This document shows positions 40,693 through 63,550 of a DNA stretch of 64,000 nucleotides, piece after piece (within the stretch, counting starts at the first letter, position 1; every line of letters begins with the position of its first letter). The position numbers and the translations under genes are program-made. This DNA is from Octopus vulgaris (lineage: Eukaryota). Location: assembly GCA_951406725.2 (NCBI GenBank), contig OX597818.1:15190001-15254000 (forward strand), read 5' to 3'. The notes beneath the pieces are model-generated. The model was not told the DNA's origin, made no database searches, and saw only the letters and a list, made by a program, of their open reading frames with translations.

Positions 40693-42783
40693 TTGTCATT
40701 TACTTTTAATCTGCATGTTTGATGCAATCACCTGCCGGGGCACACCCAGCGCCCTAGGGCAAGTGAAGGTTAAGAGTTGTTGAAATATAGCTGAAAGCTT
40801 GGGGAGGGGAAGTAGAGAAATATCTCCATGTAATACAAACACAAACATTTACATTGATAGGGTTTTTCTAAGGATGTGGGCAGTACTTGTTAGCACAATC
40901 TTTTGGATTTCCTTGAGACATGGTTTTCCAGGGATATTGTCTAGGTGTTTCTGACATCCCTTTTTTATCATACCTAGGGCACCTACAATAACAGGAACAG
41001 TTTTTGTTTTAAGATTCCACATCCTCTGTATTTCGATTTCCAGGTCCTTATATTTACTAAGTTTGTCAAATTCCTTGACAGATACATTTTTATCAGTGGG
41101 GACGCTTACTTCTATTAGTCTGCAGGTATTTTCTTCCCTGTCTTTAACAATTATGTCTGGTCGATTAGCCTTGATCGTTCTGTCAGTGTTGACTGGAAAA
41201 TCCCAGAGGATGGTGACATCTTTACCTTCAACAACTGGCTGAGGATGGTGTTCATACCAGTTAGCAGGAGTGTCGGATTTGTAGTGTTTACATATCTTCC
41301 AATGTATATACTGTCCTACCCTATCGTGGCGATTTTTGTATTCGTTTGGTGTCAGCACAGGACATCCCGAAACGAGATGGTCTATTGTTTCGTCAAATGT
41401 GTCACAGAATCTGCATTTAGGGTCAGTACCGTTTCGGAGAACGTTAGCCTGGTAATTTCTGGTAAACAAGCTTTGATCTTGTGCTGCCATTATGAAGCCT
41501 TCAGTCTCTGCTTTCAATCCAGAACTCTTCAGCCACTGATGGGTTGTTGCTTGGTCTACATCAGCATTTTGGCTTCAGAGAATGTATTGTCCATGCAGGG
41601 GCTTCTGGCTCCACCGCCTCTCAATTTGATTCTGCCCATTCTTTTTTGCAGTCTGCCTGATTCGCTTTGCTTGCTTGGTAGCAGTGGTTTCTGGCTCTTC
41701 ACCTGATTCAAGGTTAATGCCTAGTTCCCTTTCGAACTTATAAGCTTCCTTGACAATAGAATGCAGCTTTTTGCTGCTTTCGTGTTCACACACAAGTCGC
41801 AGCATCCAGTCTTTTGTACTAGATAGGTACCTGTTCATTCCTACAGTAGAGGTCTTATAGCACAGCTCCAATTGCATCATTCCTCTCCCCCCGCTGCTTC
41901 TAGGTAGGTACAAGCGGTCTACATCTGCCTTAGGGTGGTGCATGCTCCTGGATGTCAGTAACTTTCTTGTCTTCCTGTCCAAGCGTTGGAGTTCCGTAAG
42001 GTTCCAGTTAATGATGTTAAAACTGTACTGGACTACTGGAAGTGCCAGGGTGTTAATGGCCTCAATGCAATTTTTGGAGTTGAGTTCAGTCTTCAGTACA
42101 AGCCTTATTCTCCTATAGTACTCCTTTCTTATTTTTTCCTTCATAGTAGCATGATGTATACCATCTCCTTCGTTGATTCCTAGGTATTTGTAGCTTTCTT
42201 GTGGGTCAAGTTCCTTGATGGTAGTGTCAATATCTAATTTAACAGAAGCTGTTTGCCTGAGCTTGCCTCTTACAAAAGTTGCTTTAGCACACTTATCAAG
42301 GCCAAAATCCATTCCGATATCATTGCTAAACTCTTTAACAGTTGTTAGCAGCCCTTCTAGCTCTTGGTCATTCTTGGCAAACAGCTTTAGATCGTCCATA
42401 TAAAAAAGGTGGTTTATTAACTTGCTAAAAACTTTGTACCCATATCTGGCACTATCCAATTCGTTTGAGAGTGGGATCAGTGCCATGCAAAAAAGTAATG
42501 GAGAGAGGGAGTCACCTTGAAAGACGCCTCATTTGATGTTGATGCTGTTGGACTGGCTCATCCCATTACTATGGTTTAGAAAGAGACGTGTGTTCCACAT
42601 GGTCATGCTATTCTCTAAGAATTTTGAGACGACAGGGGAGATCTTGTATATCTCAAGGGCCTTGAGTATCCATTTATGTGGGACACTGTCATACGCTTTC
42701 CTGTAGTCTATCCATGCCATACTCAGGTTTTTGTTTTTGCTCCGGCAATTCTCTACAATCATTCTGTTTATGAGCAATTGGTC
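40693..42783 (-). mobile_element. 5'-truncated R4/Dong-like non-LTR retrotransposon (RT + zinc knuckle + restriction-like endonuclease)
   Basis: WIDYRKAYDSVPH, LFYMDDLK, CRFC...HLVSGC, RHD, RPDI..IEV..K; flanked by (TTA)n; frameshifts. Confidence 0.9.
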
Positions 42784-55234: not shown

Positions 55235-58200
55235 CTAGCAGAATTGCCCGGCGTTGCTCGGGGCTGAATTGCTTGAAAGTACTGTTAATGATTGCACTGA
55301 ATTATGATGATTATTCAGGCAAATATTGATATAAGTTTACGGCGAATGAATGTATTTGTAAGTGTATAGAAAGCCGTGTAAAGGAGTTCCTACCCCCTCG
55401 TAGAATGGTGTAAGAATTGAATGCGAGGTTGCCTTGAAAAGAGCCATGTTATTGTTCTCATAATTATAAGAATTTGATATTCGTGGAAGGTGATGTAAAA
55501 CGTTCGCAGGTGAATAGGGTCTCTTCGTTTTGCACGAACGGCAGCGGATGTGCTGTTACAAAACTTCATGCTGTGTTAAAAGAGAGTGGATTTCCTATGT
55601 AGGCAAGAGACAGGCCCAAAAACCTGCCCTTTTTTAATTAAATGAATGAGCTTAGCCAGTTTCTGCCTGAAAACCCTTGCAATAATATCATGGCGATGAC
55701 AGTACTGCTGCCCTGGGAGAAGTTCTCGCGTTACCTCAACCCACTTTGGGTTACATGTAAAGGTAATGAATAAATCGGGTCGCCCATAATGCCAAACGTA
55801 AGTCATAGCGTCTTGTGTTCGCTCGTGCATGTACCATGGGCCCCTGTATAGGTTGAGGGGAGAATGCACATTTTGCCGATATTGTGGCCGTCAGTGTCAT
55901 TCCTGATGCCATCACGCAAATGGATGTAGGAGTCTGAGCGCAGCTGCTTCTGATTCAATTTGATAAAGCACAGTCTCTCGGACTCCATCTTTGCAGCCAT
56001 GTCAACTGCAAACTGGTGAAACAGTTCCCGTGATCTGTGCAGGGGGTTGAAATCATTATGCCTTGTCATGAAGCGGTATGAGTAAAATGCCATACATGAA
56101 ACGGTTTTAGATGTCGCAGCCGAGAGCTCGTTTGGTTTGTGGTGAGGAATGCCGAAATGGTACCCGTCTTCTCCATACGGAAAAAGAAGGAGATACGTCT
56201 CATTAATACGCTGAAGACCACTGTCGCAGCTTTGAAGAACTATGTCTCGCTGCTTGTGCTGTTCACCATGGAGAACTATGGCCACTTCATTGCACGAAGG
56301 AGCGTTATATCGGCACGCGTGCTCCCCATGGTGAATGTTGGTGAAGGGGCTGTTTCCAAGGTATATTTGAAACTGCGAATATAGCTGTTGTGGTCATGAA
56401 GCATGTTTTGCAGAGTGAGCAGCACGTCCCTGTCGAAATTGTCAGCATCAGTGTTTGCAGGTTGTGGAATTACGTTGAAACGCAAATCAAGTTGCCTATT
56501 GTAATTTGTAATGAAATAAATTTGAAGGAACGAAGGTTTGCAATTTTGTAGTGGCTGTAGTGACCCAATAAGGTGGTACACCTGGCCCTGGACCTTGAAA
56601 GTAGGCATCCAACCAGTTTCTCTGACAATGTTAGCCCCGAAAGAAGTCATCTGAAATGCACAATTGTACTTCGTGATGAGTTGAAGGAATTTTGATGACC
56701 TTGAGGTGGAACCAGTAAGTAATTCCTTCAAAGGGTCTGGCAGCTCCCGAATAGGGGGCAAGCTGACCTTACCGTTTAAGCAGCACATCGCAGGTGGTTC
56801 CCCAGCCCACTTTTTAGCAATGCAGAATTGGCAATTGACGCACATTTCCCCAATATTTATGTCAGCGTGCATCGAGTAATTGAAGTTGGGCTCATACTTG
56901 AAAGCCCGTAGATGCCAGTAAGGGCTGTTTGGACTCGTCAGACCGTGGCGTCGACTCTTCTGCTGGAATGTAGAACGTTGCTGGTCTGAGTCGTGGGAAT
57001 GTGTCGAAAATGTTGAAACAGCAGTAGCCGCAGCGTTTGTAGCCAGTTGAGTGGCCCTTTGTTGTGGGTCCTCTGAAGCCCCTTGTGCAGCAACAGCAGA
57101 AGCCTTTATGGCGCTACGCTTCGACCTTGTTTCCGGACCGTCTGAAGCCATAGAAGCAGCATCGTATGAAGCCATTTTTGCTAGGCATGCGTTGCGCTGT
57201 TGTAAATTTTCAGCAGCTCATGATTGCACTGAACGTAAGGCGCTCTGTGAAAGTCTGAAAGCGTTTTTGTCGGAGGACTCGTTTGCGATAATCGCCTTTT
57301 GCGCCGCTGCTGCTGCAGTATGGCGGCCAAGGCGACTTCTCTTTTTCGGTGGCATTTTATGTGAAAAAGAAAGTGTGAAAGTTACTTAAAGATAGAAATT
57401 GTAATGTGAATGAAATGTGGAAAAATGTAAACCGTGGAAGGAAAAGAAAGAAATATTTGCAGCTGAAAGAAATTTTTTATGCAAGTATAGCGACAGAGTG
57501 TGTAAAATGTATTGAAATTTGAGTTAAAAGCAAGAAAATAAAGTTAGATTTGCAAGAATGGAAATAGTTTACGTACATGTTCGAAATGTGAAGTGTTTTA
57601 GTTGTTTAATCAAATATTTGCGTAAAGTGTATAGAAACGTAAATTGAAAAAGAAAATGAATTGAAATTTTTAAGAAAGGAATTTGTTTACATACATGTGT
57701 CAAATGGCAAATGTTTGTGCAGTTGTCTGAAATGGAACCAGGGTAAATGTGTGGAACTGATGTATTATAATGAATAGTCCTTCTTGAACTGAAAACCAGT
57801 GGTGTAGCATATAAGACCATAGGGGATCTTCTTCTAGCAAAAAGGGATAACCAGTCTGAATGGCTCATCCCTGTCACACACACACACAGACACACACACA
57901 CTCACACACACACACGCACACACACACACGCACACACACACACACGTTAGCTTACAATTTCTTTCAACAATTGACACTGTCGTATATATTTGCTTGTGTA
58001 TGTGTGTAAAGAGGAAGTGGGAGTAATAGGCAGAGTAAAGGCTTTGAAGTGAAAGAGTGAAATGGTAAAATATTGAGTTTTGTCGAATTTTTTCTTAAAT
58101 GGGGGTCAAATTGAAAGAAATTTTGTATGGCATGACCGAATGGAAGTACTTGGAAAAATCATAGGTAAACTCTAATTGAAGAAATTGTGTGATGTATTTA

Positions 58201-58607
58201 TTTGTTTTTGTTTGCTGTTTTTTTTTTGAGTAGTGGTTTAAGGTACACTTGCAAAGAGAAAGTAGGAGAAATTAGGGTGATAGCATGAGTGAAGCAGTTC
58301 ATCCCTGTTATATAAAAAGTTTCACTTTAATTGTTGCACACTTGCAAAGAGAAAGTAGCAGAAAGTGTGGTGGTAATGGTATGAGTGAAGCAGTTAAAAT
58401 GAAAGAGGGAAATCTAAAAATATTGAGTTTTCTCGAATTTTTGCTTAAATGGGGGTGAAATTGGAAAAACTGTACCTGCCACGACCCGATGGATTCTACT
58501 CGTAAAAATGATAGGTAAATTCTAATTGAAGAAATTCCATATTGTAGATTTGTATAAAAAACAAACGGTTTGGGAGGCAGATAAAATCTGCCTTTTATAA
58601 TAAGAGA
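55235..58607 (-). mobile_element. Internally deleted Helitron (3373 bp) with both termini intact
   Basis: - strand A|TCTCTTATTATAAAA ... CCCG-agcaacgc-CGGG hairpin ... CTAG|T; AT target site; Rep motif YGRPDLFITFTCNPKW. Confidence 0.92.
55600..57355 (-). pseudogene. Helitron Rep/helicase N-terminal half (zinc finger + Rep motif 1); helicase domain absent
   Basis: MPPKKRSRLGR start; CQFC...CCLNGKV; YNCAFQMTSFGA; FKVQGQVYHLIGSL; one stop and two frameshifts. Confidence 0.88.
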
Positions 58608-58781
58608 TACACATATATAGGTGCCATCAAAGCTTACTTCCTAGCCACATGGTTCTGGGTTCAATCCCATTGCATACCACCTTGTCTTCTTCTATAGCCT
58701 TGGCTAACCAAAACCTCATGAGTGGTCTTGATAGATAGAAACTGAAAGAAGCTATCATATGTATTTGTGTGTGTGTATATG

Positions 58782-58880
<99 letters not shown>

Positions 58881-58881
58881 T

Positions 58882-58964
<83 letters not shown>

Positions 58965-58970
<6 letters not shown>

Positions 58971-59610
58971 CATTATATAATTAGGGCTTAGTAAAATAAA
59001 TTACTTTGCCACATACTGAACTTAGTAGAAATAGCAGCCAAAAAAATTTTCTTAGCATTTCTACTACTTAAAGAAAATTTCTCTCAGATAATGTTTACTC
59101 TAGACAGCTCACGAAGGTTTGGGGGTAAATACAGAAAAATATCACAAGTACATAGATCGTTTGAGTACGTCAACGTTTCAAGATTAGCCAAATAAATCAG
59201 CATTTCTTTCGTCAGCTCAAAATTTCTTAATTTGGATTTGGAAACACTAAAAAGAAGGAACTTTACCTATCAGCGAACTTGTCGCTTCAGATGAACCACT
59301 CCAACTAAACAGTGTCAACAAATTCAAACGATCTATGTACTTGTGATATTTTTCTGTATTTACCCCCAAACCTTCGTGAGCTGTCTAGAGTAAACATTAT
59401 CTGAGAGAAATTTTCTTTAAGTAGTAGAAATGCTAAGAAAATTTTTTTTTTTTTGGCTGCTATTTCTACTAAGTTCAGTATGTGGCAAAGTAATTTATTT
59501 TACTAAGCCCTAATTATATAATGTAATATTTTGAATTCGCCTTAAATGGTCCTTTTACATACTGAATACTTGGTGAAATTGATTATTTAATTAATTTTAC
59601 CCTCAATTGT

Positions 59611-59612
<2 letters not shown>
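58965..59612. mobile_element. Young fold-back element between (TA)n tracts (arms 58965-59164 / 59324-59529)
   Basis: Arms appear identical except for poly(A/T) run length. Confidence 0.9.
59160..59221 (-). ncRNA. Type-I hammerhead ribozyme motif with complete core
   Basis: TTTGAG-CTGACGA-AAGA-aat-GCTGA-tttat-TTGGC-taa-TCTT-GAAA-CGT-tg-ACG-TA^CTCAAA. Confidence 0.8.
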
Positions 59613-60545
<933 letters not shown>

Positions 60546-60548
60546 TAC

Positions 60549-63427
60549 TAATCCTTAAATCCTTAAAAATGTTTTAGCCCGAAGGCCGCGGCCATGCTGG
60601 GGCACCACCGCTGAATGAGCCACACTAGTTTGTGAATCCACCTCTGATACGTGGCACTTGATCAACAAGGGAGTTCGATGCTGCTGCCCGCATCCGTGTC
60701 TCCTGTCGTGAGGTAGGTTCATCTGGGACTCCCAACAAGAAGAGATCCAGTTTAGTTTTAAAGAAACCCACATCCACACCATGTAAGTCTCTCAGGCATT
60801 TAGGGAGGATGTTGAAAAGCTGTGGTCCTCTGAAACCCAAGCTGTTGCAGTATCTGGACCTGTATTTTGATGGTGATGTTGGAATCCTTGGCACCACGCA
60901 GCGGCGCCCGTTCTGCGGTTGGAGTAACTTTGAATGCCAAAGTTTGGGACAAGACCCTCCAGGATTTTCCAGATGTATATTACTGCATATCTCTCCCGCC
61001 TCCGCTCCAGGGAGAAGAGGTTTAATACCTTCAGTCTTTCCCAGTAGCTGACATTTTGCATTGAGACGATTTTCTTTGTGTAGCTTCTCTGAGTTGCTTC
61101 GAGTTCTGCTGTTTGTTTTATATTGTGTGGTGACCAAAGTTGGGAGCAGTAGTCCAAGCGGCTGAGGACAAATGTTTTCCATAGGACCATCAGTGTCTCC
61201 TTCTCTCTTGTTCTGAAAGTTCGGAGAATCCATCCAGCTAGCCGTCTGCATTTTATCACCAGATTAGCAATATGCATTTGGAAAGATGCATCATTGCTCA
61301 TGTCAATGCCCAGGTCACGCACTGATTTTGACTCAGGGATTGCAATTCTTCCTGGGCCAGTGTATCCAGTCTTCACGTCATTTACCTTTGTGTGCCAGTA
61401 GCGCAGGGCCTGGAACTTACCTGCATTAAACTGCATGTTGTTGTCCTCAGCCCACCTGTATATTGTGTCCAGCTCATGTTGCAGATGCGCAATATTTTCA
61501 GGGTTCTGTATTGCGTGGGAGACCTTTGTGTCATCTGCATAGCTAGCAAGGGTGGTCATCGTAGCAACTGAAGGCATGTCTGAAAGGGCCACTATGAACA
61601 TCAGTGGCCCCAAGACAGTGCCCTGTGGGACACCGCTTGTTATTTGCGTTTCCCTGGAGGTGGCTCCATTGCTCACAACTCCCTGTTTTCTGTCTTTTAG
61701 GAAGTTGTGCAGCCACTCTCCAAGTTTCCCGCCTATGCCGAGACCACGCAGTTTGTGACAGATCATACCATGGTCGACTTTATCAAAGGCTTTTGCAAAG
61801 TCAAGATATATTACATCCACATTTGAGCCATTTAGTAGCTGTTTTCAACACCCAGTCATAGTGTTGCAGGAGCTGTGTTAGGCAGCCTCTACCTGGTCGA
61901 AATCCATGCTGGGTGTCAGACAGTAAGTCATTTTCTTCAAGGAACATGATTAGTTTCTTACGGACTATTCGTTCCATGACTTTGCTGATGTGTGAGGTCA
62001 GAGAGATAGGCCTATAATTTTTAGCATCTGCTCTGCTACCTCCCTTATGGATAGGGCATATTACCCCCTCTTTCAGTTTGACTGGGAGCTTACCACTTGC
62101 AAGAAAGCTCTGAAAAAGAAGCTGTAGCGGTTTTGCAAGGGCTCGTTTGCACGATTTGAGAAGGATCGCTGGGAATCCATCAGGTCCAGCAGCTGAGTTT
62201 GTGTCAATCTCATCAATGGCTAGTGTGATATCATCTTCTTCGATGTTGATGTACTCAATTTTTGTCTCTTTGGCCGCTGGTAAAGTGGCAAAGAATTCTT
62301 CTGGGTTGTTTACTTGCCTGTGTCCTAGAGGTGTAGTGAATACACTTTGGAACTGTTCGTTCAGTATTTCACTTATCCTCGTGGGATTTCCTGTGAGAGA
62401 GCCATCTTTTTGGAAGAGAGGTCCTATTCTCTGGTGCACTGTGGCTGTCTCTTTGGCAAACTTAAAGAAAGCTTTAGGGTTTGATTTTATATTTTCTATT
62501 ACCCAAGCTTCTTTATCTTCTCTCCTTTTCATGGGACTGATGTAGACTTTTCTCAGTTTCCATTAGCATTCTTTCGAGCCGAGACTTCTCACCACTTTTG
62601 GTGTGCTTGCTCAGGCGGTTTGCAATCCTTGTCCGTCGTCTCATAAGAATCCTCCTTTCTCTAGGGATCCTGTTTTTATTCTTGTGTGTGCTGGCCCTGC
62701 ACATTGGGACATATTTGTCACATATGGCTTGTATTATGGACATGAAGTGTTTGTGTTTCATGTTTATGTCCGGTGTGGAGAGACATTCAGGCCAATCCTG
62801 TTTGAGGATCTCTTTCTCAATCGACTTCCAGTTGGCTTTATGAAAGTTTAAGTTGGAGAGATATAGGCTGTGTGTCTGCGGGGGCTTTTGTTCCATACGT
62901 AGACAGCTCTATTATGTTGTGATCCGAGATCATTGTCGGCATCACATTAACATTATGGATAATATCCATATTGTTTGTAAAGCAGAGATCCAGTATATTA
63001 TCTGCCCTTGTTGGTTGCAGAACTATTTGCTCCATGAAAGAGGTATTTGTGAGATGGAGCAGGGACTCCACCTGTGCCTGCTGATGGTGTGTCATCCCTG
63101 GGAGCATCTGCCCCCAGGCCATTCCACATTGGGGAGGTTAAAGTCACCCATGAAGAATACACTGTTGTGCTGTTCAAGGTTGGTGAGGACTTCTCCTATT
63201 TTTGTTAGGCAGTCTTCAAACATGCCTGAGTGTTTTGGGGCGTCTGGTGGGCGATATGTAGTGCATATGACGATATTCAGTTGTCTTATGTGTACAATTT
63301 GAGTTTCACATACTGAGTTTGAATATGACAGCAGGACCTGGGGCGTGAGGTCATCTCGGATGTACATTGCAACTCCACCATGGCTCCTCCCTTTTCTATC
63401 TGTGCGTATGATATATTGCGGCATGTG
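60549..63427 (-). mobile_element. CR1/L2-group LINE ORF2 (APE + RT), 5'-truncated, short taaggat tail
   Basis: YRPP, MGDFNLP, SDHN, NYRPISLTS, YLDFAKAFDKVDH, GVPQGTVLGP, YADDTK; several frameshifts. Confidence 0.9.
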
Positions 63428-63550
63428 TATTTCTTATACCTATATCGGGTTCAAGATGCAATTGTTTGTTTGTATTCCACCTGCCTTTGTCTTTTATTTA
63501 TTTCCGTAAACCTGCCTTCGTCTTTTGTCTATTTTCATAAAGCTTCCCGT

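Follow-up and report, generated by a model that had tools for sequence, protein, structure and literature searches.

Animal non-LTR retrozymes are built from units of 150–450 nt (Cervera & de la Pena 2020, PMC7229834), or of 51–972 nt in the survey of Li, Clavereau & Pollet 2026 (bioRxiv 10.64898/2026.07.22.740005), and their mobility by the enzymes of Penelope-like elements (PLEs) is inferred in these accounts from shared ribozymes, co-occurrence and pLTR phylogeny. PLEs leave an inverted, 5'-truncated copy, often with a tail at one end, at (TA)n targets, and the origin of the inverted copies and one-sided tails has been named as an open task (PMC8557442). For an anole PLE in vitro, two internal reverse transcriptase (RT) start sites bound the tail and both strands are cut and extended; the enzyme is a predicted dimer, and ribozyme cleavage is dispensable (PMC11167929).

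We show here that the fold-back element in the window (the whole 64-kb stretch of DNA that was analysed) is made up of two pieces of a single 567-nt unit, which overlap and meet at the 5-nt microhomology TCAAA, and that by its sequence the locus is a copy of a young non-LTR retrozyme family with this unit. With +1 taken as the base after the predicted ribozyme cut in the 567-nt reference unit, the order is (TA)n, an inverted piece 405–567–204, the 5-nt microhomology, a forward piece from +2 to +291 and again (TA)n, with the following features (positions in the window).

58790–58964, no strand: left part of the (TA)n target tract, start approximate
58965–59328, minus strand: left arm, unit 405–567 then 1–204, running through an intact hammerhead motif
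58965, minus strand: outer end of the left arm, the 'short' site S, its exact base blurred by an ATAT overlap with the tract
59160–59221, minus strand: motif of a type I hammerhead, with the cut predicted at 59166/59165
59324–59328, no strand: inner head-to-head junction, TCAAA, unit 405 joined to +2
59324–59612, plus strand: right arm, unit +2 to about +291, its outer end being the 'tail' site T
59474–59601, plus strand: predicted RNA structure of several helices, conserved and covarying, in which S falls in an AU-rich loop and T directly follows the last helix
59530–59612, plus strand: 'tail' of about 85–90 nt, on this arm only and absent from the left arm
59613–60547, no strand: right part of the (TA)n target tract
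60553–63459, minus strand: LINE-type element with an RT domain, a neighbour separate from the retrozyme, co-duplicated on contig C22

A sequence-only reading of the window had described two arms of about 200 bp that differ only in a homopolymer run and lie between (TA)n tracts. Alignment of 58965–59164 with 59324–59529 bears this out, with zero substitutions and a 6-base gap in an A/T run as the sole difference, and the tracts are present on both sides. The arms of that description stand; what it took for a spacer is part of the left piece, and the right piece extends to 59612. No reading frame of 100 aa was found inside the element at the window locus.

In the assembly searched (2.8 Gb, 227 contigs) the 567-nt repeat unit forms head-to-tail arrays, and copies of the family are mostly embedded in (TA)n. 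Forty-two places were scored among 1161 candidates, the 40 long ones being 99–100% identical, and the 20-nt word directly past the cut has 409 exact matches in the genome. The earlier proposal of a young, non-coding, hammerhead-bearing mobile element of the retrozyme/Penelope kind is upheld, the window locus being one of about 400 young copies. The unit (34% GC) has no LTR and no protein coding, and its predicted circle is strongly folded (z −6.3 vs 40 shuffles). Sequence features of a non-LTR retrozyme, namely tandem units of a few hundred bases, a type I hammerhead in consecutive units and low GC, are found here; animal non-LTR retrozymes likewise consist of non-coding tandem units that are low in GC and each contain a single type I hammerhead, their predicted circle is strongly self-paired, and they co-occur with PLEs. 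A unit of 567 nt lies above the range of 2020 (150–450 nt) and within that of 2026 (51–972 nt). Head-to-head insertions, fixed ends and tails, present here, are not described in the parts of PMC7229834 and bioRxiv 10.64898/2026.07.22.740005 that were consulted, and, unlike animal non-LTR retrozymes, the family has no pLTR partner among the PLE loci searched here.

At least four sister families (B, C, D and E) accompany the 567-nt family (A); unit lengths of 546 nt and of about 598 nt were found among them. Family B, with a 546-nt unit about 75% identical to that of family A, forms arrays of up to 13 units. One family-B array occurs twice on a single contig (L196 and L205, G000:C24), 60 kb apart, inverted and with a different number of units, so that arrays do alter in length after insertion. 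Two other family-B arrays (L201 and L194) show a periodic recurrence of unit variants, the period being 2 or 3, which hints that some templates were multimers, possibly circular, or that the arrays were reworked later.

On the minus strand, 59221–59160 contains every element of the complete type I hammerhead that the sequence-only reading had proposed: UUUGAG, CUGACGA and a stem II of AAGA/UCUU with an inner 5-bp hairpin in the first half, followed by GAAA, a stem III of ACG-UUGA-CGU, GUA and CUCAAA in the second. Its placing of the predicted cut at 59166/59165, with the plus-strand arm starting one base into the 3' product, is likewise correct. The curated Rfam models, to which it had looked for confirmation, give no hammerhead match: a scan of 57000–62000 returned 11 matches at E ≤ 5, and a hammerhead is absent among them. 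The unconstrained fold is without the active hammerhead core (z −0.42), the hammerhead fold reaching −9.6 kcal/mol vs a minimum of −9.9 kcal/mol, which leaves the active core 0.3 kcal/mol short of the free fold. Stem III has an energy of +0.4 kcal/mol as a hairpin and −10.8 kcal/mol as a 10-bp self-duplex, and in family B it is a perfect 8-nt palindrome. Dimer-acting animal hammerheads have a stem III that is weak as a hairpin and stable as a self-duplex (PMC4209133); the short palindromic helix III of dimer-acting metazoan type I hammerheads is found in the 567-nt family too, and the window hammerhead, with its self-complementary stem III, is predicted to act as a dimer.

The motif is intact in successive units of one array (L004) and across loci. 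Sister families preserve CUGANGA, GAAA and UH while the free position varies; in family D stem I has become CCUAUG/CAUAGG and stem II GGAA/UUCC with all pairs retained, and when families A, B and C are aligned, pairing holds in 46 of 48 cells and a double change occurs once. In family E the core is mostly decayed. Since the core persists in diverged sister families, where stems I and II differ by paired changes, the putative ribozyme is more than a chance occurrence. Unrelated type I hammerhead motifs lie in the flanks of seven other loci (L006, L007, L080, L097, L133, L137 and L148), and the genome, judged by such motifs, carries many repeat families with a candidate ribozyme.

The insertions have their outer ends at two fixed sites separated by some 90 nt, S (about +190 to +204) and T (about +291), and both kinds of end merge into (TA)n, where a target-site duplication is unreadable. 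A head-to-head arrangement was found in 51 of 101 clusters, and 40 of these 51 have both ends at the preferred sites, 39 as S+T, one as T+T and none as S+S; copies in one direction end at T in 23 cases, at S in 23 and elsewhere in three. In the sample from contigs C1–C3 (40 head-to-head copies in 70 clusters, seven with one end elsewhere; five rows hand-corrected) the S+T combination accounts for 32 of 33 head-to-head copies (P 4e-9). It recurs in all 13 head-to-head copies of family B (20 loci chosen for long arrays) and in the single examples from families C and D. Elements of PLE-type architecture are present: head-to-head arrangement, inverted 5'-truncated copy and a tail at one end. Insertions seldom end at the other ATAT/TATA words, those of +24 and +339, and family B has no ATAT at T, which argues that microhomology alone does not choose S and T.

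The region +151 to +300 is the most conserved between families A and B (90–97% identity, vs 50–77% over +301 to +480). Within it, +150 to +290 can be drawn as covarying helices with 96% of pairs kept and four double changes among six sequences, all of them related, so that covariation of the structure has moderate support; we predict that this structure is a binding signal for the reverse transcriptase. Arms nearly equal in length (697/684, 603/589 and 660/634 nt) occur among L027, L050, L062, L072, L075 and L082, and look as if they had been extended in step.

The two arms of an insertion are more alike than are separate insertions, differing at 102 of 12250 sites (0.83%, unmasked) vs 1.93% between insertions; tandem units differ at 0.87%. 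Minor variants are common to both arms 12 times more often (0.42% vs 0.035%, the highest of 500 permutations being 0.14%). In family B the arms differ by 0.28% vs 2.1% between insertions, and haplotypes of up to 11 variants are present in every unit of both arms. Such sharing could also stem from gene conversion after insertion.

We suggest, with a probability of about 0.72, that these insertions arise by two-ended target-primed reverse transcription carried out in trans by a PLE enzyme, with S and T both used on one uncut or re-circularised RNA and the resulting cDNAs joined by microhomology. A Penelope-like RT–endonuclease, probably a dimer, would bind the conserved structure at +150 to +290 of one RNA and cut both strands of (TA)n, after which one strand would be primed just upstream of the tail (S) and the other just downstream (T). 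The template would be an RNA with an intact hammerhead site, either an uncut multimer or a re-ligated circle, and both cDNAs would stop at random and then be joined by microhomology. The ribozyme would act earlier, as a dimer, cutting array transcripts to unit length for circularisation, and would not set the insertion ends. More tentatively, and at somewhat under even odds, a single PLE RT dimer may serve one circular RNA, its subunits starting on each side of the 90-nt tail and both rolling round.

If this rolling-circle reading is correct, multimeric head-to-head arms of one haplotype would be a genomic record of two-ended rolling-circle target-primed reverse transcription, retrozyme circles would be linked directly to PLE enzymes and an RNA signal of about 140 nt would be defined. 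The family offers countable signatures of insertion (one S and one T per event, one haplotype and ribozyme read-through), together with a short covarying RNA element usable in the existing in vitro PLE assay.

The sequence-only reading had instead taken the inverted arm to be a cDNA of the self-cleaved 3' product, such that the right arm of the window copy would be a run-off cDNA ended at the 5'-OH of the ribozyme-cleaved RNA. We consider this unlikely. It draws on the start of the window arm at +2, on six events genome-wide that start at −2 to +2 and on two further partner arms that start at +1 and +3 (L056 and L039). The 409 matches comprise 403 with C at +1 and six without it, four of the latter being point changes in an intact ribozyme and two being the window and a locus on contig C22. 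The latter locus agrees with the window locus in the junction, the TA tract and, at 98.9%, over 2.9 kb of the LINE next to it, so that the two were counted as one event, and the C22 junction was rejected as independent support because it duplicates the window locus (4.4 kb in common). Break patterns at +1, −1 and −2 have one, one and seven matches, among which one, one and three are true 5' ends, one of these (L121) possibly a small deletion instead. Starts at −2 to +2 of the cut thereby amount to 7 of 409 copies, or six events, where 3.3–4.8 are expected (P 0.12–0.34). The background rate was taken from the first 100 matches as listed, on contigs C1, C2 and some of C3, where 29173 nt of sequence upstream of the cut contain 85 ends; it gives 4.8 events for four positions (P 0.34); a rate from the nearest 100 nt gives 3.3 (P 0.12). 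With partner arms included, three of about 106 arm ends in the C1–C3 sample fall at +1 to +3 (expected 1.1–1.9, P 0.10–0.29).

A slight excess of ends at the cut is possible on these counts, and we find no evidence for a cut-site junction as a general rule. Clustering of inversion junctions at the cut had been set beforehand as the test of the run-off claim: the inner junctions are spread across the entire unit, and their number at the cut is not significant, an outcome that goes against the claim. The cut site is unbroken in 402 of 409 exact matches and read through in 99 of 100 sampled copies, as it is by the left arm of the window insertion itself, which does not fit a run-off cDNA from cleaved RNA; the main template of the anole PLE is unprocessed RNA (PMC11167929). 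Moreover, the window junction lies on a 5-nt microhomology, as do most inner junctions on an overlap (at least 1 nt in 32 of 51), and the position of the window's inner joint beside the predicted cut is likely to be a coincidence.

Alternatively, priming could be one-ended, with the nascent strand folding back or switching onto its own cDNA and the second arm being trimmed at the other site; self-priming has been proposed for Penelope palindromic junctions (PMC3846280). As a general account this is quite improbable, even if it would explain both the common haplotypes and the single tail per insertion. Copying one arm from the cDNA of the other is geometrically possible in 24 of 33 S+T pairs, and fails in the remaining nine, where neither arm can have been copied from the other's cDNA; these include the window, whose arms each hold sequence (164 and 87 nt) that is absent from the other. 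Junctions symmetric within 1 nt number three in 40 copies (expected 0.2) and those within 12 nt five (expected 1.8, P 0.03), against 34 of 40 that are asymmetric by more than 30 nt. The few symmetric junctions suggest that fold-back does occur in a minority of insertions.

Rearrangement of a satellite at the DNA level, by recombination or repair between copies in (TA)n and with no RNA step, is very improbable: duplication of the window locus together with its LINE neighbour and the changing unit number of arrays speak for such events, which nevertheless predict neither the fixed outer ends, the S+T rule and the ragged 5' ends nor the fact that both the ribozyme stems and the 3' structure change in pairs. 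An assembly or read fold-back artefact beside (TA)n is scarcely credible, as the window flanks are different sequences, the junction occurs at two loci with separate later changes and dozens of other junctions obey an asymmetric rule not expected from a read artefact; contigs of four public runs cover the hammerhead region and none spans the junction, which counts neither way.

The family lies close to several described systems. Endonuclease-bearing PLEs (PMC8557442, PMC3846280, PMC11167929) share with it partial tandems, an inverted 5'-truncated copy, a tail on one side, insertion into AT-rich or (TA)n DNA, two internal start sites and a hammerhead inside the repeat and not at its ends; they differ in that the 567-nt family has no ORF, its tail is about 90 nt whereas theirs is 30–40 nt, and multimers can occur on both sides of the junction, reaching about 6.5 + 3 units in family B. 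Non-autonomous elements of Chlamys such as MRC1 are also non-coding, multicopy, head-to-tail and moved by PLEs; the MRC1 type resembles an autonomous partner at its 3' end, whereas no partner was found here, and the Chlamys clade is reported to be without canonical hammerheads, whereas the motif is present here (PMC8557442). By analogy, the S+T reading would extend the in vitro result with the anole PLE (PMC11167929). In the articles searched, we found no account of the 567-nt family or of counted S+T pairing in retrozymes. The element behaves like PLE cargo and, as it has no RT + GIY-YIG ORF, would not be an autonomous PLE. In LINE-1 twin priming, a single RNA is primed twice and the product is a 5' inversion with a microhomology join, made of pieces that are free of overlap and with a variable second site. 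The 567-nt family, by contrast, has overlapping pieces, two fixed sites and no poly(A).

One RT + GIY-YIG element does occur in the genome in great abundance (L153–L158 and L161); it has intact frames of 781 aa, ends in (TA)n and is apparently active. Upstream of the 781-aa frame lies another, of up to 479 aa, that matches nothing in Pfam; the pseudo-LTR of this element measures 456 nt, and a variant hammerhead core, UUGAUAA, is found about 100 nt ahead of the end joined to TA. Its loci have no homology to the 567-nt unit or to the conserved region of the unit, the 5' ends of 100 mapped retrozyme insertions show no common ORF junction, and no coding frame lies upstream of families D and E (50 loci); 150 of 6136 GIY-YIG candidates were scored. 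The one profile match within a PLE locus (L137) was rejected as a partner, since it belongs to a separate insertion of family D that occupies a TA tract close by.

Around the window locus, a block of 4.4 kb comprising part of the retrozyme, the TA tract and the young LINE (window 59054–63459) is duplicated at about 98.6–98.9% on contig C22 (L068:2049–6592, G000:C22). Both LINE copies end at the same point, and the block may have originated by either LINE 3' transduction or DNA duplication. Further along the minus strand of the window lie broken Helitron helicase-like frames (55803–57217, Pfam Helitron_like_N) and a second broken LINE-type RT fragment (40849–42528).
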